DNA of 64,000 bases, taken from positions 7,536 to 71,535 of IMG/VR virus record IMGVR_UViG_3300038701_001167. One strand, 5' to 3'. Positions 3,672 through 61,461 of this stretch are shown in pieces; position 1 is the first letter of the stretch; each line of letters starts with the position of its first letter. The notes beneath the pieces were generated by a model, which saw only the letters and a program-made list of their open reading frames with translations, was not told where the DNA came from and searched no databases. The position numbers and the translations under genes are program-made. Source of the DNA: a virus.

Positions 3672-3675
3672 TGGT

Positions 3676-4049: not shown

Positions 4050-4068
4050 CTCATGTTATGAGGTTCAA

Positions 4069-4227: not shown

Positions 4228-4248
4228 GAGAGCCTCCATTGATTTGAT

Positions 4249-4268
4249 TCCAATGGAGCCGTAGGCTC
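4249..4268 (+). promoter_or_regulatory. N4-type vRNAP hairpin promoter (template on + strand, leftward transcription)
   Basis: TCCAATG-GAGCC-GTA-GGCTC: C-GNA-G triloop hairpin with a CC start site at N4-like spacing; near-identical copy at 5084. Confidence 0.75.
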
Positions 4269-45439: not shown

Positions 45440-46171
45440 TTAGGCGGCTTTAGAGGCGCCGTAGTAGGACTTCAGGCGATCAAAGACGAGGTTGACATCG
45501 TTGTCGATGTAGAGCTCTTCCCGATTCCAGAAGCCAATGGGAGCACGCATCTTTTCACCAGGATGATCCTTGGTGACACGGGTGGTGAAGACGTATTTGA
45601 CGCCATCCTCTTCTTCTTCATCGGTGATGTTGAGAAGGGCGTTCTCGTGCTTTTTGAGCTTGGTCACAGGCATTTGCTTGGTTCCAAGAATGGTGGTGAA
45701 GTCAGCTTCTACGCCAACTTTACCCACGGCACCTTTGATCGGCACCTTGGTCTCGTTTGTAAGAGTGGCTTCATTATAGACGGTGTCTTCGTGAGCCAGG
45801 ATCACATAGTCCTTGGTTCCAGATTTGATAGCGTGAATGAAGTCACGGTAGAAGTTGCCGTAGTTGCCCCAGGCTTTCTGGGTGTCTTTGGCTGTTGCGA
45901 CGTTCTGGCGCTCATACATCATCATCAGGAAGGTGACGGTATCGAGCACAGCACCGGTGATACCGGGGTTGGTTTCGATCTCCTGAATGAATTCCAGGAT
46001 GTCGGTTGCATTGGAGATTTCTGCCTCAGCCGCGAAACGAGACTGGAAGGGAATTTCTTTGAGGTCTGTGTTGAGATAGACCATCGATTCCATCGGCAGG
46101 TTGCGAAGCGAACTGGATTTGCCAGTGTTCGGTCGGCCCATGATGAGAACAATGTTTTTGTTCTGGCTCAT
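45440..46171 (-). CDS. AAA ATPase (N4 gp44, Sak4-like)
   Basis: GRPNTGKSSSL; VLDTVTFLM..YE. Confidence 0.85.
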   Translation of the reverse strand: MSQNKNIVLIMGRPNTGKSSSLRNLPMESMVYLNTDLKEIPFQSRFAAEAEISNATDILEFIQEIETNPGITGAVLDTVTFLMMMYERQNVATAKDTQKAWGNYGNFYRDFIHAIKSGTKDYVILAHEDTVYNEATLTNETKVPIKGAVGKVGVEADFTTILGTKQMPVTKLKKHENALLNITDEEEEDGVKYVFTTRVTKDHPGEKMRAPIGFWNREELYIDNDVNLVFDRLKSYYGASKAA

Positions 46172-46242
46172 ACGATTTCCTTTGTTTTCTTGATTTGTTC
46201 TTCACGCAAAAACGCTCAGAGGTAAGATTGGAGAGACCTCAA

Positions 46243-48399
46243 TTAAGGGGTCTTCTCTTCGATCCGTTTTGCTGCTGTGACCAACACCGTGGACTTGAGC
46301 TCATTGATATCGAGCTTGTCCGTGAGCTTGTCGTTGAACTCGATGACACTGCGTTCAACCGTCAGGTAATCCATTCCGCTATCGACAAGAGCCAATGCGA
46401 ACTTGATCATCTGATTGTTCCGGTTGCCGTTTGCCATACGTTCCGCGAACCAACGCTCAAGGTTGTCCAAGCTGGCCAGTTCTTTGTTCCGCTCATGGAA
46501 GGCATCGTTGCGGGATGTCTTCGGGATGAACGGCAGAATATCCACCAGCTTGCCATGGTTTATATGATAGGTGCCTTTGGGATTGGTCATCCACTTACGG
46601 CTCCGTTGCATGGCTTGCTCATCGACCTTGATCGGGAGCCACTGAAGGAAGTTCTTGATGAACTGGTCAAAGTCTTCCTGGTCGAGATTAAGCTCATAGT
46701 TCATTGGGAAGATCAGGCGGAAACGGTGTTCTGTCTGCGTATGACGCTTGGTGGTGTACGTCATGAACGTGTAGTCTTCGAGCAAAGCATGGGTTTGATC
46801 CATGTCTGCTGTTCCGTCTACATCCACAACCAGGAGATTGAAGCCTGGAATGACATTGTCTTCAGAGCGGTGCTCATTCAGAAATGCGTGGTTTGCCCAA
46901 TGAAAGCCATCCAACTGGGTCAACCTGTGAAGCTCATCAAAGGGAGCCTCATCTGCTGTATAGCCAGCAGCATAGTCGGTTGAGTAGGAGATCTTCACAG
47001 AGTTCAGATCAGTCTCTTTGAGGGACTCACCTGAAAAGAACTCGATCCCATCCGAAAAGGTTTTCCGCATGATGACGTTGTTCCGGTAACCCCAAGCGAT
47101 TGCTAGACCCATGAGTTCGTTACGGGCAGTGGCACTCTTGGGATAGAACGGTAGCTCATCCACCAGATCGGCATGGGTGAGTTCCCGGTCCACGTCAGCG
47201 ACGTGCTTTGCAAGCTTCATGTGAGGCTTGTCCCGTGAGAGCAGTTCTTTGAATGCTTCCCCTGACTCTTCCACCAGTTTGATGGCTGAGTTGAGGTGAT
47301 CCATGGTGACAACAGAGGACTCATCAATGAAGGCAAATGCCCCTGCAAGCTTGAGAGCTTTGAAGTACCGGTGCATCATCTCTGCACGACGAATGCTGTC
47401 GTACCGAGGCATCATGTCTGCCAGAGTTTCACAGTGGATTTTGTACTCAAGTAGAGCGATCCCCTCATCATCAGGCAGTTCCATAAGCCAGTTATGCTTG
47501 TCTGGATCAGCCAGATAGGTGAAATGAGTGGACCACTTTGCGATATCTGAACCAGTCGCAGGATTGATCAGTTCTTGATAGATCTCGGCCGCAGTCTTTT
47601 CCTGGGCTGCTCGTTTGGGTTTACCAAAAGCGAAGAGTGAGCGACGGGCATAACCGGTCTCAAGCATTGAGTAGAATGCTTCTTCAATCTTGGCTCCATC
47701 TAGAAGCTTGTCAGGAGAACCGAACCAGAAAGAGTTGGCGGGTGTTTTGCCATGAATCTCTTCTGTCCGCTTGTTGTCGGCTCCGTTCTTGGTGAGCTTG
47801 TTCTTGATCAGGCCCTGGTCATAGAGTTCCAGGTACGTGGTCATTGCCTCTATAACATGGCCCTGACCGAACTTGAGACCGATCTCATCGATCTGCAAGT
47901 TGATGGAACCAATGTCAGCAAGCAGAAGCTTTTGACGTACCTGTTTGATGGCAGCTTCAGAGCCACCATCAAAAGAGAACGGGTAGGCACCGGTGCTTTT
48001 GAACTCTTTCTCCAGACCATCATATTCGTCTTGAGCTTCTGTCTGGTTCCGAGCAGAGCGGCTCATGGCATGACGCCACAAGGTCCGTTCAGCAATGATG
48101 GGAAGGGTCTCTGTGGTGAAGCGATCACGGAAGCCTTCAAGGAATGAGTTCTCCATGAGGCCTGTAGAGTAGCCTTTGCCGGCGCCAGATGTGGCGAGAG
48201 CAATAGCATAGCAGTTCACAGGGATTTCACCGCGGTCTTTGGTGGAGACACGGGCTCGCATAGAAGAGCCAATGGTGGTGAGATAATAGGCTGCGATCAC
48301 ACGAAAGAAGTGACGGTCGTTGTTCTGCAGGCGAGCGCAGAGAACGTCAGTGATCTCTTCGATAGCCGGGTGGTGGGGAACTTGGTCGAAATCAACCAT
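46243..48399 (-). CDS. primase (N4 gp43 homolog)
   Basis: ATSGAGKG, QIDEIG, DVDG, YTTKRH, RFRL, GNRNN. Confidence 0.85.
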   Translation of the reverse strand: MVDFDQVPHHPAIEEITDVLCARLQNNDRHFFRVIAAYYLTTIGSSMRARVSTKDRGEIPVNCYAIALATSGAGKGYSTGLMENSFLEGFRDRFTTETLPIIAERTLWRHAMSRSARNQTEAQDEYDGLEKEFKSTGAYPFSFDGGSEAAIKQVRQKLLLADIGSINLQIDEIGLKFGQGHVIEAMTTYLELYDQGLIKNKLTKNGADNKRTEEIHGKTPANSFWFGSPDKLLDGAKIEEAFYSMLETGYARRSLFAFGKPKRAAQEKTAAEIYQELINPATGSDIAKWSTHFTYLADPDKHNWLMELPDDEGIALLEYKIHCETLADMMPRYDSIRRAEMMHRYFKALKLAGAFAFIDESSVVTMDHLNSAIKLVEESGEAFKELLSRDKPHMKLAKHVADVDRELTHADLVDELPFYPKSATARNELMGLAIAWGYRNNVIMRKTFSDGIEFFSGESLKETDLNSVKISYSTDYAAGYTADEAPFDELHRLTQLDGFHWANHAFLNEHRSEDNVIPGFNLLVVDVDGTADMDQTHALLEDYTFMTYTTKRHTQTEHRFRLIFPMNYELNLDQEDFDQFIKNFLQWLPIKVDEQAMQRSRKWMTNPKGTYHINHGKLVDILPFIPKTSRNDAFHERNKELASLDNLERWFAERMANGNRNNQMIKFALALVDSGMDYLTVERSVIEFNDKLTDKLDINELKSTVLVTAAKRIEEKTP

Positions 48400-49357
48400 G
48401 GGTGTACAAATCCTTCTGGGTGCAGATGGGAGCAGCGTCACAGTAGCCACATGCTTTCACGACACCGGGAACCTCGATCACAACTCCCTTCCCACCTTTG
48501 TCTTGCATAAAGCGGTAGGCTTGGGCTTTGTCGTCGAAGTTCTTGGTGGATCGACCATCTGTTTTGTTGGGATTGGAGTAGTATTTCCAAACTGTTTCGC
48601 TGCGCCAAAGAGCTTCTTCAGGACAGAAGGGGAGCTCACTTTCAGGCTTGTCGGCATTCATTTCCAAAGAACGAATACGCTCTTTGATCCACTTCTCTGT
48701 CTCCTCAAGAGACATGAGCTGGACACGATGTTCCTTCACACGTTGAGACGGGTAGTTCGGGTTGGCTTTGGCCATTCCCCGCTGCCAATCAGTAAAGATG
48801 AAGTTGATCGTGATGTAATCGGAGGTGATCTTTTCTGGGTGGATCCAGCGATAAATGCTGCCTTGGAGACAGTAATCTTCTTCTTTGGAGCCATTGAGCC
48901 AGGTGTAGACTGAAGTGGTCTTGAAGTCGTTCAGCTCGCCATCGACAACAATGTCGAATTTGCCTGAGATGATGTATCCCATGATTTCACGAGAGCCACG
49001 AAGCTCAAGGTAGACAGGGAGATCTCCATCTTCGACGGTCTCGGGATTGATCCTTACTCGATCGATGACTTGCTGGGGATATCCCAGCTTCTGCATGGCG
49101 TCTTGATAGGAGGTTTTCCAAGACTGCTCGATACCGTCATGGATCGAATGACCCAAGCGAGAAGCAATGTAATCGGCAAGGTCGGGTGTCTTTTCAACCT
49201 TCTCTGTCAGCCGTTCTTTCAACAGAATCTGTCGAACAGGCTTGAGAAGGGATGTGGCTGAAATAGACCGATTGTCTGGTGTAAAGTCGTAGCCATCAGA
49301 TGCCAGCCAGACGGCCATGGGCAGGCCGATGCCTGTGATGTTGGTGATTTTTCCCAT
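48392..49357 (-). CDS. PD-(D/E)xK exonuclease-like protein (N4 gp42 homolog)
   Basis: ISATSLLKP.RQ, G..IH..IE, ISGKFD...DFKTTS, C.YC. Confidence 0.8.
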   Translation of the reverse strand: MGKITNITGIGLPMAVWLASDGYDFTPDNRSISATSLLKPVRQILLKERLTEKVEKTPDLADYIASRLGHSIHDGIEQSWKTSYQDAMQKLGYPQQVIDRVRINPETVEDGDLPVYLELRGSREIMGYIISGKFDIVVDGELNDFKTTSVYTWLNGSKEEDYCLQGSIYRWIHPEKITSDYITINFIFTDWQRGMAKANPNYPSQRVKEHRVQLMSLEETEKWIKERIRSLEMNADKPESELPFCPEEALWRSETVWKYYSNPNKTDGRSTKNFDDKAQAYRFMQDKGGKGVVIEVPGVVKACGYCDAAPICTQKDLYTHG

Positions 49358-49452
49358 GAGTGTATTCCCCCTGGCTCTATGGTTTGATGTGCTTTGGTGT
49401 GATGGTGGTTGGTCCTAAACCCCAGATAGGGATGTGACCAACCACCGATCGA

Positions 49453-49821
49453 TCAGCTTTTCACTGTTTCTGGAACAGCGGAAGCTTTAGAGAAGTCTTC
49501 CTGCGTGGTGTAAGCAAGCGGGAAGATGTTTAGGAGAACGATGTCTCGGAGTTGATCCGGAGTGACATCGTTCTCCTTATTCAAACGTGCCATGACACCC
49601 TGGTTCGCCTTGTCGAGATCGTCTCGGAGAATGTTGGGTGACGATGTGATCAACATGATGTTGACCGTGCGCTGTTTGAGTTGGTCATCTTTTGAGTAGA
49701 TGGCCTGAGCTGCAACAAGGTGAAAATATTCCTTCACCTCGCCTTGTGGGGTATCAGCAGCTTTGCTCGATGCTTTCTTGTTTTTTGGAGCTGTGTCCGT
49801 TCCTGGATATAGAGGATTCAT
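49453..49821 (-). CDS. hypothetical protein (122 aa)
   Basis: Coupled to the polymerase stop. Confidence 0.7.
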   Translation of the reverse strand: MNPLYPGTDTAPKNKKASSKAADTPQGEVKEYFHLVAAQAIYSKDDQLKQRTVNIMLITSSPNILRDDLDKANQGVMARLNKENDVTPDQLRDIVLLNIFPLAYTTQEDFSKASAVPETVKS

Positions 49822-52430
49822 TAAGCAGCTTTCTTTCCTGTTTTGTTGAGGTCATCGAGATGTTCCGAGATGCAATCAAAGATCGTGTCATTGCTTGCAT
49901 GGTTCGGGATTTCCTTCTCGTAAGCCCATGAGGGCCAGAAGATGGAGAGCTCCCCACCCAGCTTTACCTGGTCATGTGCAATAGCAGGATGTTCTTGCCA
50001 CTGTACGGCTTTAACCAAGTGCTCATTGACATATTGAACCACGTCAATGTCATCTGGGATGAGGAAGTATTGCGCATCATGGATATGCGCTATTGGCCGG
50101 ATCAGCAGGCGATAAGGGCTTCGACGCACCTTGCCCATAAACTCAGTGCTTGCGCGAGAGTTCAGGAGACACCAGGACTGTCCTAGTGCATTGCCTGCTG
50201 TCCGACCTTCGGCCGCAGCTTCATAGGGCGTCTTGGACGTCCCTCTGATGACCTGATGGAGTAGGGGAGTCCGAACCCTCAGGCCAAACGCTGCCGTGAT
50301 ATAGCCAGTATGTGAAGCCTCTTCGAGCTGCTCATCTACCCATTCATCACTCACTCGGTAGAGTTCATGATATCTGGCTTCGATGCTGCGAGCTTCCTCT
50401 TCAGAGAACCCGCATTTCGCCATCAGGGTGATGTATGTACCCTGATAAGTTAATGCGAAGGTTGGCGTCTTGGACGCCTGCCGAAGCGGCTTGTATTTTC
50501 CAGCAATGGAATTGATGCTCTCAACAGTGTCTTCGATATCTGGCATCTGCTCCCGGAAGTAGGAGAATGCCCGCATCGAGTGACCGTCGTACCCATCCGT
50601 GTAGACCTTCAATTTGTTGGGGTCTTTGGTGGTGAGAGCAGAGATCCGGTCTTCAAGTGAAGCGAAATCCAGTCCAATCATCAAGTAGCCCTTTGGCGCA
50701 CGGAAACAGTCCTTGATCAGTTTCGCGTACTTGGATCCGGTGGCTGGGATGGTCTGAAGATTGGGCCCGGATGAACTCAACCGGCCAGAGACAGTGCCTC
50801 CGAGGTTGAAGTTACCGAACAGGTAGTAGGCGCCATCAGATGCTTTGATGGCTTCTTCCATTGCAGGAATGAACGTCCCATAGATTTTGTCCACGGCTTT
50901 GAAGTCGAGAACAGCATCCAAGAAAGCTTTGATGGCTGGCTCTTCTGTGAAAGCTTTGAGCTTCTCCAGAATTTCCGCACCAGTGGCTGGCTGTTTGGAC
51001 TTGGTTCGTTCAATGACTGGCAGGCCCAGTTCTTCGTAGAGAAGACGCTGAACCTGGTCTGGCGAGTTTGGATTAAACTCCTTGTCGAAATTACCAGACG
51101 TGTAGGCTCTCACCTTGGTTCCGGCTGCCTTACGGTTGAGCCATGCTTGATAGCGTTCTGTTTCGGCTTCCTCGTTCAGTTTGTGAACAAATTCCCGAAC
51201 CAGTGCATGACCATGGATCCGCTTGAGCGAGTCGTCCCGGTCCACTTCCAAGAGCAGCTTGGTCTCTTTGACCTTGTCCATGTCCAAAGGCATGCCCGTG
51301 AGCTGCATTTGAATGATGTCCAAGATCGCTGGCTTGAAGAGTGTCTCGTAGATGTGAAGCTGCTCATCAGCCACCATGGTGGCATAGTGCTTGTGGTAGA
51401 CATACCAGGTGGCACAGGCGTCAATGAGGTTGTATTCAAGAAGCTCAGCCATCGGAATTGACCGAATGTCTTTGATCTCTTCAACCGCATAGTTGCCGGT
51501 GAATTCTTGGCTCTGGTCCTTGAGGCCGAGGCTGTTGCCTGCACAGGAGTTTGTTGCCAAGTAGGTGATGAGCTTGGTGTCTTCCCAGTTCTTGAGCATG
51601 ACGTCCATGCCATCGAGCAGACCTTCCGTATCCAAGAGATCGGACATGAAAAGCTGGTAGATGAGAATGTAGACGTCATAGCTAATGTTGTGGAAAATCA
51701 ACTTGTGCTTCATCTCGTGGAAGAAAGTCCGAAGCATTTCCCGAACAGTTTCCGGGTTGGGCCCACGATCAACAGGGAAAGCAATCCCTTCATGCTGGTT
51801 CCAAGCAAACGAGATCGTACCAATCCCGGCTGAATAGTGCTTCAGTGAGAAGGCCTCGATGTCACAGGTGAGGTCACACTGCATGTCCAGCAGCTTGGCG
51901 AGCCATGCAGCGATATCGACCGTAGAGGTGGGGTAGGCGGCATGCTTGAGGATTGCATGCCCTGGTTCCTGGTATTGGCCGATACGATGATCCCAGAGAG
52001 CCTTGAAGGCATCCTGAATCTTCAAACGGGTCGGCTCAGGATTATAGAAGACCTGGCGATAGTTTGGAATGAAGATGACGTTGAACCTTCCTTGCAGGCT
52101 CTCCGGGTATTTGTTGGGCAGAACGTATCCTGCATAGGCTTGGGCTTTCTTCACACCGGTGAGGGTCTTGAAGTAATCCCCATCTGTGACCATCAGGTAC
52201 TCTGTTCCGATGGTTGTCAGGGCAGGTAGGAGCTCATCGAGGAACTCCTTTTGGTCAGCCACAGATGTTTTCTTACCAGTGATGTGCAGCTGGTAGGCCA
52301 CCACTTCTTCTGGCTTGAGGCCGCTTTCCCCGAAATACTCTCTGACCATTCCATCCTTTTCGAGTTTGGGAGCCAGAAAGCAGATCGGGAAAGTTGACGG
52401 CTGAGTGTCGGTGAAAGTTTGGTATCGCAT
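49821..52430 (-). CDS. family A DNA polymerase (N4 gp39 homolog)
   Basis: Exo CDIE, FHN..YD, YN..D; pol motifs DFASLE, RQASK..TFALTYQG, IHDA. Confidence 0.95.
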   Translation of the reverse strand: MRYQTFTDTQPSTFPICFLAPKLEKDGMVREYFGESGLKPEEVVAYQLHITGKKTSVADQKEFLDELLPALTTIGTEYLMVTDGDYFKTLTGVKKAQAYAGYVLPNKYPESLQGRFNVIFIPNYRQVFYNPEPTRLKIQDAFKALWDHRIGQYQEPGHAILKHAAYPTSTVDIAAWLAKLLDMQCDLTCDIEAFSLKHYSAGIGTISFAWNQHEGIAFPVDRGPNPETVREMLRTFFHEMKHKLIFHNISYDVYILIYQLFMSDLLDTEGLLDGMDVMLKNWEDTKLITYLATNSCAGNSLGLKDQSQEFTGNYAVEEIKDIRSIPMAELLEYNLIDACATWYVYHKHYATMVADEQLHIYETLFKPAILDIIQMQLTGMPLDMDKVKETKLLLEVDRDDSLKRIHGHALVREFVHKLNEEAETERYQAWLNRKAAGTKVRAYTSGNFDKEFNPNSPDQVQRLLYEELGLPVIERTKSKQPATGAEILEKLKAFTEEPAIKAFLDAVLDFKAVDKIYGTFIPAMEEAIKASDGAYYLFGNFNLGGTVSGRLSSSGPNLQTIPATGSKYAKLIKDCFRAPKGYLMIGLDFASLEDRISALTTKDPNKLKVYTDGYDGHSMRAFSYFREQMPDIEDTVESINSIAGKYKPLRQASKTPTFALTYQGTYITLMAKCGFSEEEARSIEARYHELYRVSDEWVDEQLEEASHTGYITAAFGLRVRTPLLHQVIRGTSKTPYEAAAEGRTAGNALGQSWCLLNSRASTEFMGKVRRSPYRLLIRPIAHIHDAQYFLIPDDIDVVQYVNEHLVKAVQWQEHPAIAHDQVKLGGELSIFWPSWAYEKEIPNHASNDTIFDCISEHLDDLNKTGKKAA

Positions 52431-52939
52431 CAGTAGAGGATCCGGCTTGAGAGATAATACTGGAGCAGTTGTTCGGTCTTCTCGAACTGGCTCAGCAGCA
52501 TCGGGTTATCTTGGAGGGTCCAAGCAACAGGTCTGGTGCGTTGTAAGGAACCCAGCTCAGGCAAAATCATTCGAACTGCGTTTGGTAGAGCATCCCTGAC
52601 ATCCTGTTGGTTAGAGCAACCACGCAGAACGACGGAGAGACCTTGCCGAAGCCTGGTTTTGTCTCTCTGGAACTCATCGATGGATTTGGCGAGGCTCTCG
52701 CCAAGTTCATGAAGAGAGGGATGTAGAGGAAGCTTCTTGGTAGTCCGTTGCTCTTTGATAGAGAGCAGGCTGTAGAAGCGACCTCCAAAAAGAAAGCCCT
52801 CCCGATTGTTGGAGAGCTCAGCGTTTTGTTGAATGATTGTCTCGATTTCCCGATTGAACATCAGGGCATCGGCTTCTCCGATACCGTCAATGATGCGGGT
52901 GAGATACTCATTCTGCAGCGAGGGAGTTGGTTGTGGCAT
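52430..52939 (-). CDS. N4 gp38-position protein
   Basis: Between helicase and polymerase; QDVRDALP motif; start moved to MPQPT. Confidence 0.7.
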   Translation of the reverse strand: MPQPTPSLQNEYLTRIIDGIGEADALMFNREIETIIQQNAELSNNREGFLFGGRFYSLLSIKEQRTTKKLPLHPSLHELGESLAKSIDEFQRDKTRLRQGLSVVLRGCSNQQDVRDALPNAVRMILPELGSLQRTRPVAWTLQDNPMLLSQFEKTEQLLQYYLSSRILY

Positions 52940-54263
52940 GGTAATCTGGTCCTTGGTACTTGTAGGGGAGGTCCCCATAGAAGAAGACCTGTGAAGTGGC
53001 CCTGGACGCAGCGACGAAGAGCATACGAGCAACCATCTCTGCATCGTGGCAGCAGCCGATATTGCCCAGATCAACGAAGACCGTTTCGTAGGTGCTTCCT
53101 TGAGACTTGTGGACAGTGCAGGCTTCCTTGCCGCGAAGATCGGCCATGAAGTTTTTCAGCTCGAAATACCGGCCCCATTCTTTACGCTTCTTGAGCACTT
53201 TGAGTGTGGCAGCCACATGAGCAGGACGAACGGCTACTGGGACTTCCACTGGCTCCATGAAAGAAGCACGAGGAGTGATCCCAAGGTTTCGGTATTCGAT
53301 TTCTTGGCCGTCCGAAGTGACATCAGCATACCCAAACTTGTAGATTTGAGGATCAACACTGTGGACGTAGACTTCCCGTTCCACGTTGAGAACCAGTTTG
53401 CCACGGGCAAAAGTTGTGGCAACGACGAGCTGGTCTCCTTTAACGAACTCCTTGGGCAATCCGCGGATTTCACGGATGTACTCATTATAGTCGCTGACCC
53501 TGTTGTTGCTGTAGCAAAGGATACGAGCAGAGTCGTTTTGCTCCAGGAAGTACTCGTTCATCTTCTCTTCCATCTGGGTAGGATTGAGGAACTGAATGGC
53601 TGGAGCATTGGGACGGATACGGTAGAACTGCTCTGTTTCCACGGTTTCTCGTAGCTGCTTACACAGGTCGACCAATGCCGGTGTGTTGGCATTACGGACA
53701 GGCTGTGTGAGGTGGACAAAGTAGTTTGGATCCACGTTGAGATAGACCGGTGAGATCTCTTCTCCGATAGGGGAGAGCTGAGACTTGTCCCCAACGAAGA
53801 CGATCTTGCTGTCGACCACATGCTTGAGAATGATCTCGTAAAGCTCTGTGGAAATCATCGAAGATTCATCGATGAACAAAATGATCTGACGATGTGTCTT
53901 GGTGTTGTGAGATGTCTCAATCTTGGTCTTGCCGGACTTGTAATCGTCCCAGACTCTCAGACCCAAGAAAGAGTGGATGGTTTGAACAGGCTGGTTCACA
54001 GACCGCTCAAGCACCTCTCCAGCCTTGTTGGTGGTGGCTGTGAAGTGGATGTTGTAGGGGACTGAATCAATTCCCATGATACCACAGGAACGCTCATAGG
54101 TTTGCATGAGATCGTTGCTGAGATAGTTCATGAGGAACGTCTTGCCGACACCGGCACCACCAGACAGAACGAAGGTGGAAGCGTCAGATACAAGAAACTC
54201 AAAGAAGGCATCGACGGCCACCTGCTGATCTGCAGTGAGTTGTGCTTTGGTAGGTGTAGGCAT
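52908..54263 (-). CDS. SF1 (Dda/RecD-like) DNA helicase (N4 gp37 homolog)
   Basis: GGAGVGKT, TIHSFL, IDESSMI, VGD..QL.P, TVHKSQGST. Confidence 0.92.
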   Translation of the reverse strand: MPTPTKAQLTADQQVAVDAFFEFLVSDASTFVLSGGAGVGKTFLMNYLSNDLMQTYERSCGIMGIDSVPYNIHFTATTNKAGEVLERSVNQPVQTIHSFLGLRVWDDYKSGKTKIETSHNTKTHRQIILFIDESSMISTELYEIILKHVVDSKIVFVGDKSQLSPIGEEISPVYLNVDPNYFVHLTQPVRNANTPALVDLCKQLRETVETEQFYRIRPNAPAIQFLNPTQMEEKMNEYFLEQNDSARILCYSNNRVSDYNEYIREIRGLPKEFVKGDQLVVATTFARGKLVLNVEREVYVHSVDPQIYKFGYADVTSDGQEIEYRNLGITPRASFMEPVEVPVAVRPAHVAATLKVLKKRKEWGRYFELKNFMADLRGKEACTVHKSQGSTYETVFVDLGNIGCCHDAEMVARMLFVAASRATSQVFFYGDLPYKYQGPDYHATTNSLAAE

Positions 54264-54272
54264 TGTGTGTCC

Positions 54273-54554
54273 TTAGGCTGCTTTGCGCTTTTTGACTGGG
54301 AGCCAGACAAGACGACCTTGCTCGGTGGTGTAGTCACCTTCCGAGAGCTGAATATCTCGCCAGTAGGTTCCGGATTTGCTGGTGGAGTTTCCGTTGGGAG
54401 CAAGCTTGATGAAGGTTTTTCTGACCTGAGCAAAAAGCTCATGGTTTCGGTGGAAGAGGGGTGCTTCGAAGTATTCCCCGTTGCGACTCATCAGAGCATG
54501 CGAATCAACTATAGGGGTGAAGAAGTTTGAGATGTGTTCAACTTTAGAGGACAT
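54273..54554 (-). CDS. hypothetical protein (93 aa)
   Basis: GGAG RBS. Confidence 0.65.
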   Translation of the reverse strand: MSSKVEHISNFFTPIVDSHALMSRNGEYFEAPLFHRNHELFAQVRKTFIKLAPNGNSTSKSGTYWRDIQLSEGDYTTEQGRLVWLPVKKRKAA

Positions 54555-54635
54555 TTTGGTCTCCTGATTTGGTGGGGTAAGTAGTATCTTTTGATGTAAG
54601 CAAGAATAAACTTTAAATAGTTTTCAGTACGTTAG

Positions 54636-54656
54636 TATAATCTGGTGTGGTGTGAT
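54636..54656 (+). promoter_or_regulatory. putative parA promoter (-10) with an adjacent TGGTGTGGTGTGAT motif
   Basis: TATAAT at 54636-54641 immediately followed by the dispersed repeat. Confidence 0.5.
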
Positions 54657-54722
54657 GCGATTTAACGTGACAGCACGTCATACGCTGTGTCAACTTGACC
54701 TCGGGAAAACTTGGAGCATGAT

Positions 54723-55433
54723 ATGCCGGTACTTACCTTCGCATCGTCTAAAGGAGGGGCAGGGAAAACAACCTCTGCAATCATCTTGGCGACGACACTA
54801 TGTCGTGACCACAAAGTGTGTCTGATTGATGCTGATCCAGCCAAACGATTGATGGGCTGGTCAGAAAAGGGGAAGCTTCCTCTTCGTCTTGAAGTCATGA
54901 GCACTCGTGGAGAGAAGCACATCCACGAAGAGATCGAGGCAGCCAAAGAACGGGCTGAGTTCGTGATCATCGATTTGGAAGGTGCAGCAACTCGCCTGAA
55001 CGCATTTGCTATGGGAGAAAGTGATTTGGTCATCATCCCGATGGGAGATGAGCAGCAGGACGCTGAGGGAGCCATTGAGACAATGTCTGAGCTGGCTCTG
55101 GAAGCTCGTCAGATGCGTCGGGAGATCCCGGTACGCATCTTGTTTGCTCGTACTCAGGCCGCGGTTAAATCGCGTCTGGAGAAGTCTTTGAATGAGCAGG
55201 TACGTGATAAGGTAGGAGCATTTGCCACAGAGCTTCATCGCAGGACTGCATTCTCTTCACTGCACAACCTTGGTGGTTCGCTCTACCAGATGAATACGAA
55301 TGAAGTGACTGGTGTGGCTAAGGCCATCGCCAATGCAGAGCTGTTTGCAGAAGAGTTGAAGAAAGACCTGAAGGTGATCGATCGTATGCGCAAGTCACCT
55401 CGCAAGATCAATGGGGAGATGAAGCATGCCTAA
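54723..55433 (+). CDS. parA: ParA partition ATPase (short, type Ib/ParF-like)
   Basis: Deviant Walker A SSKGGAGKTT, IDADP, IIDLEG; no N-terminal HTH. Confidence 0.93.
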   Translation: MPVLTFASSKGGAGKTTSAIILATTLCRDHKVCLIDADPAKRLMGWSEKGKLPLRLEVMSTRGEKHIHEEIEAAKERAEFVIIDLEGAATRLNAFAMGESDLVIIPMGDEQQDAEGAIETMSELALEARQMRREIPVRILFARTQAAVKSRLEKSLNEQVRDKVGAFATELHRRTAFSSLHNLGGSLYQMNTNEVTGVAKAIANAELFAEELKKDLKVIDRMRKSPRKINGEMKHA

Positions 55434-55677
55434 GGCGATGGATTTTAAGAAACTGGATCAACTGAAAGAGTCAGAGCGTCGTGAACTTGAACGGGGACGT
55501 TGGAAGTCTCGTGACATCAATCCAACTGTGCAGATGTCTATCCGGATAGAAGAGGAAGAGTATCTTCGCTTCAGGGCTCTATGCAAAGCAGAGCGTCGAA
55601 CCAATGGTGAGATGCTTATTCACTTGATGAATGCGTATCTGTCCACCACCGAGGAGCGAACGGAACAACCCCGGTGA
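55426..55677 (+). CDS. ribbon-helix-helix partition/centromere-binding protein (ParG-like)
   Basis: Overlaps the parA stop; VQMSIRI strand followed by two helices. Confidence 0.7.
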   Translation: MPKAMDFKKLDQLKESERRELERGRWKSRDINPTVQMSIRIEEEEYLRFRALCKAERRTNGEMLIHLMNAYLSTTEERTEQPR

Positions 55678-55751
55678 TGGACAGAAGGGAGGAGTGCTCC
55701 AGGTGTACCTGGTGACGTCCTCAAAGCCTGACCGGGAAAGGAACGAACCGG

Positions 55752-55940
55752 TCAGGTATCTTTAGAAAGAGAGCCATCGCTCTGGCTCTCCATATGCTTT
55801 AAATCCTGTACGGCTTTTTTCCGAGACCAGTATTCTTTATAAGCGTGATCAAGCTGTAGCTTTGACTTCTCTAACTGTACTTCAGCCCATGTAGTCTTGA
55901 GGCGAGACCATGCTCTTGATGTGATGGGAAATTGCATCAT
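55752..55940 (-). CDS. hypothetical protein (62 aa)
   Basis: ATGA coupling. Confidence 0.5.
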   Translation of the reverse strand: MMQFPITSRAWSRLKTTWAEVQLEKSKLQLDHAYKEYWSRKKAVQDLKHMESQSDGSLSKDT

Positions 55941-56167
55941 TCTGACTGCTCCCCGGATTCAATCGCTTCTTTTATTTTGACGCGCGTGTCAGATGCAAAT
56001 TTCATGGTCGCATGGAGTTCGCCCGCATAGGCGTGTCTTTGTGCAAATTCAGCGTCCCGCGCCAAAGTTCGTAAGACACCGCGTAGCCGTTCAATCTCGG
56101 CCATCAACTCAGCCTCGCGCGGCGCCGGTGGCAGTTTCACGTCTTGGCGTGGCATGGGGTCAAGCAT
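55937..56167 (-). CDS. hypothetical protein (76 aa; AEIERLR motif)
   Basis: Overlap coupling with 56160..56387. Confidence 0.55.
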   Translation of the reverse strand: MLDPMPRQDVKLPPAPREAELMAEIERLRGVLRTLARDAEFAQRHAYAGELHATMKFASDTRVKIKEAIESGEQSE

Positions 56168-56387
56168 CGCTCTGGCCCTCCTTGGATTCACAGTCAACAT
56201 CGCCTACGAGGCGCGAGTTTTTCGGCATCAGCGCGCAGTACCCCACCTCGCGTATCAGGTTGGCTGCATCGTTTCGTAAAGGCTCATCGCTGATCCACCA
56301 GCGCCGAAAGAAGCCGCGCCAGCCCGTGCGCTCAACTGCCATGTTGTGAAGAATACAAAGCGCCCGCATTTGCTGTTCTCGGGTCAT
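56160..56387 (-). CDS. hypothetical protein (75 aa)
   Basis: ATGA coupling. Confidence 0.55.
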   Translation of the reverse strand: MTREQQMRALCILHNMAVERTGWRGFFRRWWISDEPLRNDAANLIREVGYCALMPKNSRLVGDVDCESKEGQSDA

Positions 56388-56611
56388 TCTGCCTCCCCGG
56401 ATTCACTCATTGCGGCGTCCCATCCAGCGTTGAAACCCATAACGTAGGGTCTATCGCTTTTCATCCTGACCAATTCGTCACGAAGGTGCTCAATCTCTTT
56501 TGCAGCATCCAGCATGATCGCTTGACCAGTATCAAACGTGCCAGTCTCAGCCATGACACGCGCAGCGTCTTTTAGGTCTTTGGTGAGACCGTGATCGGTC
56601 ATGGCGCTCAT
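56384..56611 (-). CDS. hypothetical protein (75 aa)
   Basis: AAGGAG RBS. Confidence 0.55.
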   Translation of the reverse strand: MSAMTDHGLTKDLKDAARVMAETGTFDTGQAIMLDAAKEIEHLRDELVRMKSDRPYVMGFNAGWDAAMSESGEAE

Positions 56612-56630
56612 TCTGACTGCTCCTTAGTAA

Positions 56631-56781
56631 GATTCTACTTGTTCTGATTCAAAGATTCATGGTGATAAAACACTCGAAAAAACAAACTGTTAGCGGCCTA
56701 AACATAACCAATCTGGGGCAAGCCATAACGAATATGGGGTGAAAGATAACGGATCTGGGCTGAACTATAACCAATCTGGGG
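56631..56781. repeat. putative plasmid origin: 3 GANTC sites, AT-rich stretch, 4 iterons at 21-bp period
   Basis: ATAAC(C/G)(A/G)AT(C/A)TGGG(G/C) at 56704, 56725, 56746 and 56767; GATTC at 56631, 56646 and 56654. Confidence 0.85.
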
Positions 56782-56785
56782 AAGA

Positions 56786-57664
56786 TCAGTCTTCGTCGAT
56801 CACATCAGACTTGAGAGACTGTCTTGTGGTCTTTCCGACGCTTGGCATTGGGTCCAAAACATAACTGACTGTGTTGGTGATACGAGCTTTGCGGCCGACT
56901 TTTGGTTGCTGCAGTTCTTGGAAAGCTGACTTGATCTCATCGATGTTTTTCTTCCACCAACCCAGGCGAATGTGAGTTACCTTTCGACCGGTCTTGATGG
57001 GAGCCACTGAGATGTGGAAGTCGGCAAGAGCATTGATCTCTTGTACTGCAGGCTTGATCACTTTCTGAGCTAGGTTCCCATAGGAAGGATATTTGTCTGC
57101 CTCCACACCCAAGAGAGTTCTGAACTCATCTAGTGTGTATGTGTGACTTATCTTGTGATCGAGCCCAGAGAGTTGAGCAGCATTTTCATAGAGAGAAATA
57201 CCGTATTTGGAGGAGAGAGACAACAGAACAGGAAAGCTGATCTTCCCCCAAATAGTTGAGTTGCTTAGGATTTTGGTGAGACGCTTGTCAAAGGAGTAGG
57301 TCAAAGTTCCGGCTGGCCGATCTGGAGAATCCAGATCGTTACCACCAAGGAACTGGACCCGTGTGGTTGATCCATCGGCATGTTTGACAGTGACCAGGGT
57401 TTTCATCAGAGCCTCAATGGACTCGACAACAATCTCATATCCCTTGTGTCGTGAACCAATGAGATCAGAGATCTCGATGGTGTAATCCTTGTTCTCTTGG
57501 ATCCCCTGAGAATGGGCGTTGTGCCATAGCAAGGTAATCGATCGACGAGCAGCAAGAGAGAGGTTCTCATGTCCTGTTACCTGGATCAATTCAGCAGGCT
57601 TCTTTGCCTCTCCGGGAAGAGGGCGCTGATCGATAACGAGGTATGAGGACTTTGATTCAGACAT
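56786..57664 (-). CDS. Rep_3-family plasmid replication initiator (Rhodobacteraceae type)
   Basis: KPAELIQVTGH..LSL.ARR.I..LWHNAH, RVQFLGGND, LTYSFD, SKY...LYE, TLDEFR.LLGV...KY, VIKPAV.EIN, KTGRKVT. Confidence 0.92.
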   Translation of the reverse strand: MSESKSSYLVIDQRPLPGEAKKPAELIQVTGHENLSLAARRSITLLWHNAHSQGIQENKDYTIEISDLIGSRHKGYEIVVESIEALMKTLVTVKHADGSTTRVQFLGGNDLDSPDRPAGTLTYSFDKRLTKILSNSTIWGKISFPVLLSLSSKYGISLYENAAQLSGLDHKISHTYTLDEFRTLLGVEADKYPSYGNLAQKVIKPAVQEINALADFHISVAPIKTGRKVTHIRLGWWKKNIDEIKSAFQELQQPKVGRKARITNTVSYVLDPMPSVGKTTRQSLKSDVIDED

Positions 57665-57674
57665 TCCCCAAATG

Positions 57675-57741
57675 TAACCAATCTGGGGAAGTATGTAAGA
57701 GGAAAAGGGGAGCCAGTTACAGTTCCCCAGATTTGTTATAG
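57675..57741. promoter_or_regulatory. inverted pair of iteron half-sites upstream of rep (candidate autorepression operator)
   Basis: TAACCAATCTGGGGAA at 57675 and inverted TTCCCCAGATTTGTTA at 57723. Confidence 0.7.
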
Positions 57742-57844
57742 TTGACAGCAAGTCCCTAGCTGTCTCTCCTCTCTCGAGGTCGCCCTTACAGGTGCCTTTC
57801 CCTGGGCTCGGGAGGATCCGAACCTGCTCCGGATTGAAATTCTA

Positions 57845-58189
57845 TCAAACGTCTCCGACGAAGGTGTAGAGACATCCTTCTTTGGTTCGTTCTGTGCGAA
57901 TGAAACCAACCTTGTCGAGATCACGGCAGACCCTACGAAGGTTGGGAGCCTGTGCATCTGATATGTTGGTGAGAAGGTCCTTGGTGGTCACTGGACCGGG
58001 TGAGTTCTTGAGATAAGCCATAACGTCTTTCTTGATACGGCTGGGAGGAGGAACATGGTGCTTCATTCCTGAAGCAGGCAAGCGTGGCTTGTGTCCCTCT
58101 GCCTCAGTCAACTTTTTCATCATGTTTCCAAACATGGCCTCAACGGCCTGGTATTGGGTTTGTACGGTAGTGTCCAAACTAGCCCTCAT
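57845..58189 (-). CDS. winged-helix DNA-binding protein
   Basis: IKKDVMAYLKNSPGPVTTKDLL...LRRVCRDLDKVGFIRTER....YT. Confidence 0.65.
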   Translation of the reverse strand: MRASLDTTVQTQYQAVEAMFGNMMKKLTEAEGHKPRLPASGMKHHVPPPSRIKKDVMAYLKNSPGPVTTKDLLTNISDAQAPNLRRVCRDLDKVGFIRTERTKEGCLYTFVGDV

Positions 58190-58466
58190 ATGTTTGCAGT
58201 GAGTGAAACTGCTTTGGTGTGATGTGGTGTGGAATACATCAACCATATGAGAGAAGGGGTCAAGAGGTGTTGGGCAGTTAGTCGCATGCCCAGGCCAGAT
58301 TTGCTCTATCTATCTTAACTGGTTTCCCATTTCCGAGACCAGAACTCGGCGGGTAATGAGTTAAGATGTGCTGATACTTCCTTGATAAAAGAAAGTTTTT
58401 CAGCAGGAAATGTGATGACACTGACGAGAGCGAATATCAGTAGGAGCATCACAGAAAACATAAACA

Positions 58467-58664
58467 TTAGACGAATCCAGCCTCTATGGCTGCACTCTCT
58501 TCGATTTCGAAGGTCCCGATCATGCCGGGAACTAAGTACGTGTCATCATAGTCGACATGTGATTTTGAGATGAACTCAGCAGTGCCATCTTCGGAGTCTT
58601 TCACAAGGATGGCTGCATCTGTCTCGTGGATGAAGATAAGATCAAGGGCGACACGATCCGTCAT
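58467..58664 (-). CDS. hypothetical protein (65 aa)
   Basis: ATGA coupling to dcd. Confidence 0.6.
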   Translation of the reverse strand: MTDRVALDLIFIHETDAAILVKDSEDGTAEFISKSHVDYDDTYLVPGMIGTFEIEESAAIEAGFV

Positions 58665-59176
58665 ACTGCACCTTCAAAGATTGCTTCAACCGGACGATCT
58701 GCTTGATCCTGATACTTTCCATTGTAGGCTGCAGGGTTGGCAATCTGGGAGAAGAGAATCTGTGCAATGCCTGCACCGGCAGGAATGTGAAGGAATTCAT
58801 TACCGTGATAAACAAGTTCCAAAGTCAAAAAACCTTTCCATCCTGGTTCGATTACTGTGTTAAAGACTGACAGGCCTGTTCGAGCCCATGTCGATTTGTC
58901 ATGCACCACACCAACGAGATCTTCAGGGACCTGAAACTCTTCGATGGCAGAAGCGATTGTGAACCGGCTGTACTGTACCGGCCCAGAGTTCACGGTGACG
59001 TGCATGCCACCATGACGGGAAGGAGAAAAAACAACATCCTGAGCGATGCGGATATCGTATCCGGCTTCTGCAAGACCATGACTGACACCATGTGTTCGCT
59101 GCTTTGTGTCGGACATGTTTGCAATCGGTGCCTTCTCAAGAAGGGCTTGGCGATTGATGATCATGGTTCCACTCAT
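58661..59176 (-). CDS. dcd: dCTP deaminase/dUTPase family protein (N4 gp26 homolog)
   Basis: AGYDIR, DKSTWARTG, VIEPGWKGFLTLEL, GIAQ, KYQ.Q. Confidence 0.88.
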   Translation of the reverse strand: MSGTMIINRQALLEKAPIANMSDTKQRTHGVSHGLAEAGYDIRIAQDVVFSPSRHGGMHVTVNSGPVQYSRFTIASAIEEFQVPEDLVGVVHDKSTWARTGLSVFNTVIEPGWKGFLTLELVYHGNEFLHIPAGAGIAQILFSQIANPAAYNGKYQDQADRPVEAIFEGAV

Positions 59177-59189
59177 TGAGTAAAGAAAA

Positions 59190-59211
59190 AGGCACCTCCG
59201 AAGAGATGCCT
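59190..59211 (-). terminator. intrinsic terminator
   Basis: Minus-strand AGGCAUCUC-UUCG-GAGGUGCCU-UUUU. Confidence 0.7.
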
Positions 59212-59243
59212 TGGTTGTGATTGGTCAGAGTAATGTAAGGAAG

Positions 59244-60446
59244 TCAGGCTGCCAGATCTTCTCGATCCAGGTGAATCATCTTCCCGAAGTGCGTTTGAGC
59301 ATCGGAGTTGTCCATGACAACCCAGACAATCGGAACACCGGGATTGTCCACCATTGGTTCAACATAGAGATCTGAGAAGACCACTGCTGCTGTGGGTTTG
59401 TTCTCTTTGATGTGGGCTTGGACACACTCAAGACAGGTTCCACCTCGACCATGCACTTCGATCCTGTCGAAAGGTTGTTCTTTGGTGATCTTGTAGATGT
59501 CGTGCAGCTCAGTATCAAAGGTCACAAGTGTGAGAAGCTCAGGCTTCAGGTTCTTATGGATGGCTCTGACTTCAGAGTTGAAGCGTTTGATTTCTCCATC
59601 AGAGATCGAACCAGACACATCGAGGTAGTAGACGATGTGTTCGAGACCGTTGTCACCCACAAGAGAGGGCAGGTACTCATCCGATCTACGAGATGGCCGG
59701 CGCCATGAATAATCATCTTTGCTGAGTGCCGTGAAATACTTCCGCAAGATCTTCCTCCAGTCCAGTTTTGGCTTGAGGAAAGAGTCGATCATGAGGGTGA
59801 CTTCACCGGGAAGAGCCCCGGCCTGGTTAGCTTGGATGGCAGCCTGTTGTGCTGCAATCATGGTTCCAACAACTTCCTGAACAGCCGCATCATGTGCAGC
59901 AGAGCCAGGAACACCCGGAAGGTCTTTCACATCACCAAAGAGAGGAACACCTGACATATCCGGCATATCGAAAGGCTTCATGCCTTCACTGATGAGAATG
60001 TCATAGACCTGTTCTGTGGTCATGTTGTCGAAGCGGTGATCCATGTAAAGCTTGAAGCCCACATCGAGATCGTAGCCCTGACTGTCGAGCATGTTGTTGA
60101 TCACGTAGTCTGCAGCGATGTTCCAGATATCCGGACACCGACCCTGACGACGAATGTGGTGGCCGTAGCCTGTGTGCCAAAGCTCATGAGCCAAGACGAA
60201 CACACGAGCAGTGGGACGGAGACGGATAAAGAAGTTGGCATCATGGCAGATGGTTTTGCCATCACACCAAGCTGTCGCTCCTGTCAGTTCCCATGTGAAC
60301 TTGTGGTTACACAGGAGGGAGCCAAGATAAGCTGCTCCCGGCATGTTAAAAAGCTGTCCCTTAATACGGGACAGCATTGTGTTGAGTTTATCGACTGTGC
60401 CGCGGTCAAGCTGCGTTATCGAAGGTCTCGTCATCGTCGTCTGCAT
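59244..60446 (-). CDS. vWA-domain putative metallopeptidase (N4 gp25 homolog)
   Basis: VLAHELWH, WNIAADYVIN, DVSGSIS, GRGGT. Confidence 0.85.
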   Translation of the reverse strand: MQTTMTRPSITQLDRGTVDKLNTMLSRIKGQLFNMPGAAYLGSLLCNHKFTWELTGATAWCDGKTICHDANFFIRLRPTARVFVLAHELWHTGYGHHIRRQGRCPDIWNIAADYVINNMLDSQGYDLDVGFKLYMDHRFDNMTTEQVYDILISEGMKPFDMPDMSGVPLFGDVKDLPGVPGSAAHDAAVQEVVGTMIAAQQAAIQANQAGALPGEVTLMIDSFLKPKLDWRKILRKYFTALSKDDYSWRRPSRRSDEYLPSLVGDNGLEHIVYYLDVSGSISDGEIKRFNSEVRAIHKNLKPELLTLVTFDTELHDIYKITKEQPFDRIEVHGRGGTCLECVQAHIKENKPTAAVVFSDLYVEPMVDNPGVPIVWVVMDNSDAQTHFGKMIHLDREDLAA

Positions 60447-61461
60447 AGAAGAACTCCGTCAGATGTTGTTGACTTTTGACAAATTTCGGGTGTTTCCGAA
60501 TAGTCGGTTGCCGATTGACAGCACCACGGAAGAAAACGACCTGCATCTCTTTGGGCATGCGGTGCATGTATTTGACGACGTCTTCGAAGTTTTTGTCATC
60601 AAACTTGGCAATAAGCATAGAGATAACAGCAAACTGAGTTCCATTATCACGAGGAATTTCAATACCTTCTGGATCCCTCAAGATAGAAGCAAACGTAGGC
60701 AGTTTATTATATTCCTTACAGAACGCATGAAAGCTCTGGGCTGGTCCGGCAGAGATGATACCTGAGAGGGTTCGAAGACTAATCTCATCATGGGTTTTAC
60801 CTTTGATGAACTTCGAGGTGAACTCCCAAGTCCGAGGACATGCAAAAGTGTGTTCCACTTCATCCGGATTGAATGAGTGCAAGAGTTGTGGCTGGAATTC
60901 CAGAAAACCCATGATCCGGTTGTCAAAGCCAGCCTTGTAGGCATAGGCAATGAAATCATCTGGATCAGGACGCATTCCAAGGTGAACCACACGAGATTGC
61001 AAAGCTGTGCCAATGTCGTTGACAATGGCGTTGTCTTCTTCCCGGTTACCAGCAAGAAGGATTTTGGTTTTGGGGTGCAACTTCTTCATACCGACAACAC
61101 GGTCATAGACAATCTTGTAGGCTGCAGCGAGCACACCACGGGGAGCAGAGTTGAACTCATCGAGGAAGATGAGGAACCCGTCTTTGCCTTCAGGAAGCTG
61201 TGTGTCTTCGTCGGGGAAGACATCGAAGGGAACGAACTGAGCCCGGTCTCCAACACGCATAGGCAAGCCCATGAGATCTTCAGGAGTACACTGGCTCAAT
61301 CGAATGTCGATCAGCTCCAGACCAAATTCTTCAGCAATCTGCGCTGCAATAGCAGACTTTCCCAGACCAGGACCGGATGTGACAAAGGGAACCAGATCAC
61401 GAATAAGGAGATCGATGATCTCGTCTTTGAGTTCTGAAGGCTTGAAGTCAAGGTTGGACAT
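60406..61461 (-). CDS. MoxR-like AAA ATPase (N4 gp24 homolog)
   Basis: GPGLGKS, DLMGLP, FLDEFNSA, AGNR, ALQSR, CPRTWE. Confidence 0.88.
   Translation of the reverse strand: MSNLDFKPSELKDEIIDLLIRDLVPFVTSGPGLGKSAIAAQIAEEFGLELIDIRLSQCTPEDLMGLPMRVGDRAQFVPFDVFPDEDTQLPEGKDGFLIFLDEFNSAPRGVLAAAYKIVYDRVVGMKKLHPKTKILLAGNREEDNAIVNDIGTALQSRVVHLGMRPDPDDFIAYAYKAGFDNRIMGFLEFQPQLLHSFNPDEVEHTFACPRTWEFTSKFIKGKTHDEISLRTLSGIISAGPAQSFHAFCKEYNKLPTFASILRDPEGIEIPRDNGTQFAVISMLIAKFDDKNFEDVVKYMHRMPKEMQVVFFRGAVNRQPTIRKHPKFVKSQQHLTEFFYADDDDETFDNAA

Follow-up and report, generated by a model that had tools for sequence, protein, structure and literature searches.

The subject of this work is a group of plasmid-type replication and partition genes in the genome of an uncultured virus of the N4 kind. 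The DNA analysed, hereafter called the window, is a stretch of 64 kb which comprises bases 7536-71535 of the 72,475-bp IMG/VR record IMGVR_UViG_3300038701_001167 (L009; other contigs are referred to by L numbers of the same series). Between the genes for an N4-type helicase and a dCTP deaminase (dcd) the window holds an initiator gene (rep) with iterons and a parA gene coupled to a small partner gene. The borders and the main parts of this cassette are the following, in window coordinates, with lengths in amino acids (aa) and open reading frames given as ORFs.

52908-54263, minus strand: SF1 DNA helicase of the N4 gp37 type, a phage-side border of the cassette (Pfam AAA_30, AAA_19 and UvrD_C_2; 36% identical to the N4 helicase).
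54723-55433, plus strand: ParF-like type Ib ParA ATPase, 236 aa (ORF opens at a TTG at 54711; Pfam, PHROG and PDB sequence matches).
55426-55677, plus strand: ParG-like partner with a flexible basic N-terminal tail (RWKSR) and a C-terminal ribbon-helix-helix (RHH) domain; its start overlaps the parA stop.
56631-56654, no strand: three GANTC (CcrM-type) sites in 24 bp at the origin, found by a site scan.
56655-56694, no strand: T-rich and AT-rich DNA that separates the GANTC cluster from the iterons, a candidate unwinding element (function proposed).
56695-56781, no strand: oriV iterons, four direct repeats at an exact spacing of 21 bp with the core ATAACCAATCTGGGG, immediately 3' of rep.
56786-57664, minus strand: Rep_3 replication initiator (WH1+WH2), 292 aa (Pfam; start chosen from the relatives and a likely ATG, the ORF opens at 57751).
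57665-57743, no strand: inverted iteron pair (57665-57688 and 57723-57743) abutting the rep start, by its arrangement a candidate operator for autorepression.
58661-59176, minus strand: dCTP deaminase, the other phage-side border (Pfam and PHROG family searches).

The two domains of the initiator both score above the Pfam cut-offs (Rep3_N, PF01051, 40.1 bits; Rep3_C, PF21205, 68.1 bits); a phmmer search of Rep against the PDB sequences gave no match. The core of the iterons occurs in the window as six clustered matches and one stray, with 1.27 matches expected by chance, and none of 100 shuffled sequences reached seven. The T-rich stretch next to the iterons reaches 70% AT in windows of 40 nt. 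GANTC sites are rare in the whole genome (1.59 per kb against 3.89 expected from the base composition, a ratio of 0.41), and in just two places do three sites occur within 40 bp, at the origin and at 34096-34136 in the gene for the virion RNA polymerase (vRNAP). A GANTC cluster lies by the iterons in six of ten related contigs (L003, L004, L005, L011 with six sites, L048 and L038), and the other four have one site (two contigs) or none (two contigs). In L004, L011 and L048 about four iterons with a spacing of 21-22 bp follow directly after rep, and an inverted copy upstream of rep is found again in L004 and L048. The iteron sequence itself is specific to each lineage, the only part common to these three being the GGGG(A) end. 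By this comparison the origin is of the plasmid type and co-evolves with its Rep. A DnaA box with fewer than two mismatches is not present in the origin of the window; perfect boxes occur in L011 and L046 and in the related plasmids described below.

ParA has Pfam matches to VirC1, CbiA and AAA_31, and its deviant Walker A motif, KGGAGKT, is invariant across all relatives. It is a small Walker-type protein without an N-terminal helix-turn-helix, and among solved structures ParF of TP228 is its best relative (4dzz, E=4.5e-18; the match, given as full length, covers residues 1-197). The RHH_10 match of the partner in Pfam is weak and below the cut-off for the window copy (E=2e-3), and 7 of the 14 members of the partner family match RHH_10, the best with 1.6e-6. 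A profile of the family finds as its best PDB sequence match McdB, which is another partner of a ParA. The AlphaFold model consists of a strand and two helices with a core pLDDT (model confidence) above 94 and a low-confidence N-terminal tail with the conserved RWKSR; in the PDB its fold is matched best by ParG, and RHH proteins make up all of the top matches, with E-values that are weak, as the domain is small. The small partner is thus, by its predicted fold, a ParG-like RHH protein. A prediction of a complex of two ParA and two partner molecules, folded without alignments, scored 0.12, a value which speaks neither for binding of the two proteins nor against it. With ParF-ParG-parH of TP228 the phage pair has in common the small ParA without an N-terminal DNA-binding domain, the tailed RHH partner and the translational coupling; it differs in that the identity of the partner to ParG is below detection and that no centromere array was found upstream of the phage parA. 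A repeat search gives two candidate centromere sites, 54668-54692 and an inverted repeat at 55638-55685. A preliminary description, made from the letters of the window, had claimed a Rep_3 initiator with matching iterons together with a short ParA and a coupled RHH partner, and both claims are borne out: the first by the two Rep domains, the four phased iterons and the inverted pair, the second by the ParF-like ATPase gene and the ParG-like gene which overlaps it.

The nearest relatives of these proteins are found on small plasmids of cultured Paracoccus, Pukyongiella, Thioclava, Roseivivax, Acuticoccus and Acidibrevibacterium, to which Rep and ParA are 55-63% identical. Two plasmids were compared with the phage cassette, Pukyongiella litopenaei p4 (NZ_CP043622.1) and Thioclava sp. 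p5 (NZ_CP149930.1), with Rep 55-60% and ParA 40-56% identical. On both of them parA, the small partner and rep form the annotated replication and partition set (other replication genes were not searched for), and the partner on p4 is annotated as a “stability/partitioning determinant”. Their iterons resemble those of the phages in the 21-22-bp period (21 bp in Thioclava p5) and in the CCCC/GGGG end. The layout of p4 is that of the phages, with rep, iterons, a T-rich stretch and then a GANTC-containing element GAATCTT...ATAAAAGAACGG, which is almost identical to that of the phage contig L038. In contrast to p4 and p5, the phage cassette is part of a 72-kb genome that encodes a virion, and the phage rep is inverted relative to parA. 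The cassette is classed as a replicon of the Rep_3 iteron kind which is ParF/ParG-like in two of three components; this kind of replicon we take to be the one called RepB-type in the nomenclature of roseobacter plasmids. From the kinship of Rep and ParA, the shared origin layout and the CcrM-type sites we take the host to be probably an alphaproteobacterium, with the Rhodobacterales as the most likely order; the metagenomes sampled are of algal, estuarine and marine origin. The Rhodobacteraceae host named in the preliminary description stands in so far as the host is alphaproteobacterial and probably belongs to the Rhodobacterales, and it stays something that we infer.

The rest of the genome is that of an N4-like phage. 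The vRNAP is encoded by an ORF of 3429 aa (31502-41791) which matches phrog_2206 (virion RNA polymerase) from end to end with 1951 bits, and family searches detected the N4-type major capsid protein, the portal and the large terminase subunit (TerL). The N4 gene order is kept for the AAA ATPase, the vWA protein, the dCTP deaminase, the helicase, the primase, SSB and a RuvC-like resolvase, and a fragment of a T7-like RNA polymerase of the RNAPII type lies just outside the window (L009:7062-7565). The giant vRNAP gene and an N4-type replication and structural core in N4 synteny, by which the Schitoviridae are recognized, are thus both present. The DNA polymerase is about 57% identical to those of N4 and of several other genera of the Schitoviridae, and these are the best identities found; judged by them the phage has no close cultured relative. 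At its two ends the record carries the same 128 nt (99% identity, one gap); the assembly is thus self-closing and should lack no substantial part. CheckV puts the completeness of the record at 98%.

Such a genome could in principle be an artefact, either a plasmid fragment joined chimerically to a phage contig or a temperate phage with its integrase outside the window; the preliminary description had named both as grounds for refutation, and nothing observed speaks for either. An independent Logan contig of 37.6 kb from the likely source run spans 46000-61393, and with it both borders of the cassette, without a mismatch. Of three further runs, all from other studies, one has the same sequence and two have a relative that is 95% identical and agrees in gene order, and the same synteny is found in at least 22 contigs. 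At thresholds set to levels where control genomes do match, nothing in the entire 72,475-bp record matches the families of the integrases (PF00589), resolvases (PF00239) or protelomerases (PF16684), and no integrase was found in five relatives, among them a genome of 70.7 kb with direct terminal repeats which is rated 100% complete. The spanning contigs and the closed, recombinase-free record led us to reject both the chimera and the hidden integrase, which are refuted as far as sequence data can do so; we regard an artefact of either kind as extremely improbable. It should be noted that two further claims of the preliminary description are borne out: the N4 hallmarks are all there (vRNAP, major capsid protein, portal, TerL and the N4-type DNA polymerase, helicase, primase and SSB), and the lack of an integrase and a protelomerase, which it had stated for the window, holds for the complete record.

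A main result is that the cassette is not peculiar to one genome. The contig set comes from IMG/VR scans guided by the Rep, ParA and helicase proteins, from one scan of GTDB and from two exact look-ups. When N4-like phages were searched in this way for Rep_3 and ParA at the dcd-helicase locus, at least 22 independent contigs from many metagenomes were found with the order dcd, (thyX-like), rep, iterons, RHH, parA, helicase and DNA polymerase; the complete 70.7-kb genome is one of the bearers. ParA and its partner are present in every helicase relative of at least 44% identity for which the upstream sequence is at hand. In the helicase tree all 16 bearers of the module are on one side of a 100/99 branch which separates them from N4, Xoxocotlavirus, Plymouthvirus, Waedenswilvirus and Zurivirus. 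The Rep tree, which holds 137 proteins and includes the plasmid replicases, places 14 of 14 Reps with an N4 context on one side of a branch with 96% support in the approximate likelihood-ratio test (SH-aLRT; starred in the tree output). The opposite side holds a cluster of 89 rows with the plasmid and NCBI-named sequences, so that the phage Reps are set apart from those of the Rhodobacterales plasmids. The Rep tree, in which the root is unplaced, is consistent with a single acquisition followed by vertical descent.

Between the window and the 95%-identical relative L003 the ratio of nonsynonymous to synonymous changes (dN/dS) is 0.08 for parA, 0.06 for RHH, 0.08 for rep, 0.09 for the helicase and 0.04 for the DNA polymerase, and by this measure purifying selection on the cassette is as strong as on the phage helicase. 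Across the clade ParA is 69-73% identical in most lineages and 56% in a relative without Rep; the helicase, at 44-54% identity, is the less conserved of the two. Taken over these contigs and trees, the cassette is a clade-wide and probably vertically inherited trait of an uncultured marine N4-like lineage. Searches of the GenBank phages (August 2025) with the cassette (blastn) and with Rep (tblastn) gave no N4-like match; only two Clostridioides phages were found, with 30% identity. Two contigs classified as viral, L051 (IMGVR_UViG_3300035698_014120, 45.8 kb) and L008, have no N4 genes; their parA-RHH-rep trio belongs to the plasmid branch, and they could be either further phage-plasmids or plasmids that were wrongly filed among the viruses.

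The site of the cassette in the N4 map is occupied by other genes elsewhere. The canonical N4-like middle region, for which N4, Xoxocotlavirus and the Rhodovirinae were compared, has in common with the present clade the order AAA ATPase, vWA, dcd/thyX-like, helicase, gp38-like, DNA polymerase, gp42, primase and SSB; it has rIIA-rIIB before the helicase where the present clade has rep-oriV-RHH-parA. In N4, a Sinorhizobium N4-like phage and a roseophage the helicase has rIIA- and rIIB-like genes immediately upstream, and L084, which is nearest among the uncultured outgroups (helicase 43% identical), reads dcd-rIIA-rIIB-helicase. In the present genome rIIA and rIIB are not detectable, and a roseophage rIIA used as query found no match in four relatives. 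Since no rII genes are found here and they are directly upstream of the helicase elsewhere, the plasmid cassette occupies the rIIA/rIIB slot. Neither this replacement nor the spread through the clade had been noticed in the preliminary description.

Candidate regulatory sites of the cassette are the following.

54612-54641, plus strand: sigma-70-like promoter candidate for parA, TTTAAA-18-TATAAT, 10 of 12 positions (consensus scan, overall not above chance).
54643-54656, minus strand: copy of the dispersed motif TGGTGTGA, which faces the helicase operon and is divergent from parA.
54668-54692, plus strand: near-palindrome TGACAGC-N10-GCTGTGTCA, a candidate -35 element or operator of parA (repeat search, function proposed).
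55769-55790, plus strand: terminator-like hairpin behind the parA-RHH operon (consensus scan only).
57743-57766, no strand: palindrome GACAGC-N9-GCTGTC, like the site upstream of parA, a candidate promoter or operator of rep (repeat search, function proposed).

A block, GGTTTGGTGTGATTT, upstream of parA is kept in all phage lineages, and the GTGACA box within the near-palindrome at 54668-54692 is kept across the clade. The idea that the palindrome common to the upstream regions of parA and rep is a shared operator or a promoter of alphaproteobacterial type was dropped, only the GTGACA box being kept in the relatives. Directly before the parA start (54700-54722) there is a leader, GGGAAAACTGGAG, which is present in all phage lineages and absent from the related plasmids; it may be a translation signal or a binding site. 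The phage middle genes and the parA-RHH genes are on different strands.

The genome carries virion genes, plasmid replication genes and partition genes on one replicon and no integrase, and it therefore fits the definition of a phage-plasmid by gene content, not the observational one. Our interpretation is that the region is a complete and functional alphaproteobacterial plasmid maintenance cassette which has long been part of this uncultured N4-like lineage and which would enable facultative persistence in a plasmid-like state; we give it a probability of roughly 0.55. It is based on the parts, which are those of a low-copy plasmid, on their conservation across the clade, the selection on them and their plasmid kinship, on the separate parA-RHH unit, on the lack of genes for integration and on the intact N4 replication set: since the whole set is retained, Rep fills no gap in lytic replication. 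The sequence comparisons thus suggest that supposedly strictly lytic N4-like phages can persist in cells as plasmids. The preliminary description had gone further and proposed a circular plasmid prophage. What stands of this is a complete cassette of the plasmid type that is integral to the phage; a copy in a host replicon was found neither in PLSDB nor in GTDB.

The proposed course of events is as follows. After injection the terminally redundant genome would circularize. Rep and the parA-RHH operon, which face opposite ways, would each be transcribed from a promoter of its own by the host RNA polymerase. Binding of Rep monomers to the four phased iterons would open the T-rich region beside them, and the host replisome would then copy the genome roughly once in each cell cycle. 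Through the GANTC cluster the firing of the origin would be coupled to CcrM methylation, and Rep dimers on the inverted iteron pair would repress rep. The ParG-like RHH protein would bind a centromere and stimulate the ParF-like ATPase so that copies reach both daughter cells. A low-copy episome, either a phage-plasmid or a stabilized carrier state, would in this way persist whenever the lytic cascade driven by the vRNAP does not run. A more specific proposal, which we consider doubtful, is that the clade has swapped rIIA/rIIB for the replicon and is inherited as a low-copy plasmid without any repressor, which would be a new, repressor-free route to lysogeny among phages taken to be strictly lytic. 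Because the lytic cascade starts only from hairpin promoters read by the vRNAP, a resident copy would be silent by default when no active vRNAP is present, and rep and parA driven by the host polymerase would keep the silent copy replicating and segregating.

Several observations weigh against persistence as a plasmid. A tblastn search of the PLSDB plasmids with the N4 gp53-like structural protein gave no match, a scan of the GTDB species genomes with the helicase profile found only one whole-phage contig, in the bin of a metagenome-assembled genome of the Verrucomicrobiota, and none of the phage-side Reps in the tree derives from an NCBI genome. In the likely source run, an algae metagenome of 245 million letters, the phage contig has a word depth of about 566, so that with its roughly 72 kb the phage makes up about one sixth or more of the letters. 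A host chromosome could not reach such a share, which fits a phage that grows or is present as virions in that sample and not a low-copy plasmid. Among the approximately 50 ORFs searched with Pfam and PHROGs no repressor, antirepressor, toxin-antitoxin or other addiction module was recognized. The dispersed promoter-like motif is found near both borders of the cassette and upstream of the gene block which contains rep, and rep may, as far as such motifs tell, also be expressed during lytic growth. Upstream of parA no phage lineage has a repeat array or a large palindrome, unlike Thioclava p5 and Pukyongiella p4, which have a large palindromic array there. Finally the relative L076 (IMGVR_UViG_3300048833_000100, 73,895 bp, 100% complete) keeps ParA and its partner beside the helicase, and nowhere in its record is a Rep_3 gene or an iteron found; three small ORFs are in their place. 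The partition pair must therefore have a value without the replicon.

Most of these points speak at the same time for a role in the lytic cycle. The Rep and the iterons would then be an extra theta origin which depends on the host replisome and is used early, and ParA-RHH would position or space genomes, or regulate, during the long latent period of the N4 type, with no heritable state. The dominance of the phage in its source sample fits with this, as do the finds, all of which are metagenomic or viral contigs and none of which is in a host replicon, the lack of a recognized repressor, the complete relative with ParA-RHH and no Rep_3, and the orientation of rep, which runs with the phage middle genes downstream of the phage promoter-like motif. 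An extra origin is at variance, however, with the N4 replication machinery, the whole of which is still present, and the parA-RHH genes form a separate and oppositely oriented unit with a promoter candidate of host type. The candidate operator, the phased iterons and the GANTC cluster are conserved features of copy control and timing. Pairs of the type Ib ParA/ParG kind and autoregulated iteron replicons control low copy number and inheritance, and such control would have no purpose in a cell that is about to lyse. We find a purely lytic role on the whole unlikely, and the points against persistence still make it a serious rival. Still less probable, to the point that we give it little credit, is a use of the cassette as a weapon, in which the phage iterons and Rep/ParA would titrate or disturb resident plasmids of the RepB type by incompatibility or handcuffing. 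Plasmids of the presumed hosts often carry replicons of this family, and the cassette stands in for rIIA/rIIB, which have been linked to conflicts with resident elements. But within every phage lineage Rep and iterons co-vary and make up a closed pair, specific to itself and equipped with a candidate autoregulatory operator, the phage Reps have their own side of the tree and do not track the plasmids of the hosts, and nothing observed favours interference specifically.

Phage-plasmids are known from P1, N15 and SSU5, and a census from 2021 reportedly holds further groups. The present genome is like these in that virion, lysis, plasmid replication and partition genes are on one replicon without an integrase. 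It is unlike them in its Schitoviridae backbone with an injected giant vRNAP and a cascade of three polymerases, and in that no repressor or immunity region was recognized and no host is known to carry a member of the clade as a plasmid. In the literature searched, in which the work on estuarine N4-like viromes was only partly covered, nothing links N4-like phages or the Schitoviridae with phage-plasmids, iterons or partition. Lysogenic N4-like viruses have been predicted among uncultured IMG/VR genomes (Zheng et al., 2023, mSystems, PMC10654107). That prediction rests on integrase, transposase and diversity-generating retroelement (DGR) genes and on integrated proviruses, and the words “plasmid” and “partition” never occur in the text. 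A non-lytic option is hinted at in both cases, and the present clade has a replicon instead of those genes.

N4-like phages are obligately lytic according to the textbooks, are abundant in coastal seas and are candidates for therapy on that assumption. If the persistence reading is true, a new phage family joins the phage-plasmids, and there is a concrete genetic basis for the pseudolysogenic or carrier states that have long been presumed for marine phages and their hosts. It then also becomes a question by what means a cascade which needs an injected polymerase is silenced and started again. The exchange of the cassette and rIIA/rIIB at one locus is a natural comparison for the role of rII in N4-like phages. 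With its small size and clear limits the cassette lends itself to cloning, which would be a direct test of the central claim.

The remaining ORFs at the locus are these.

54273-54554, minus strand: ORF of 93 aa between the helicase and parA (no Pfam or PHROG match; homologs in L041, L042, L044-L047 and L053).
55752-56611, minus strand: variable cassette of four small, translationally coupled ORFs of 62, 87, 75 and 75 aa (no Pfam match).
57845-58246, minus strand: small protein upstream of rep, probably 96 aa from residue M38 (ORF of 133 aa; no Pfam or PHROG match).

The protein upstream of rep has weak winged-helix-like features, which we take as a lead only, and among the relatives it is present only in L003 and L044. 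Outside the window there is a gene for an ATP-dependent DNA ligase (PF01068; record bases 3379-4584, L009:3379-4584), a homolog of which is close to rep in the relative L060; by its family such a ligase could help to circularize the injected linear genome. In L004 (14473-17803), L048, L011 and L043 the DNA polymerase gene is split by 0.7-1.9 kb of unrelated sequence which is intein- or homing-endonuclease-like. The thyX-like gp30 homolog has 655 aa in L004 and 352 aa in the present genome.

The variable block lies between the RHH gene and the iterons. In the 95%-identical relative L003 and in the run X4 a block of 816-831 bp with the small ORFs (55779-56611) is absent, and in the source sample the block is polymorphic, with alternative joints which skip 201, 202, 370 and 414 nt and are mostly backed by only 20-27 nt on one side. 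A separate contig of 2.9 kb from the source run, with a depth of about 2007, has only a junction of 28 nt (55936-55963) in common with the variable cassette. The ORFs of the block are linked by near-identical junctions of 16 nt with stop, ribosome-binding site and start, and from their sequence these junctions look like recombination points for cassette shuffling.

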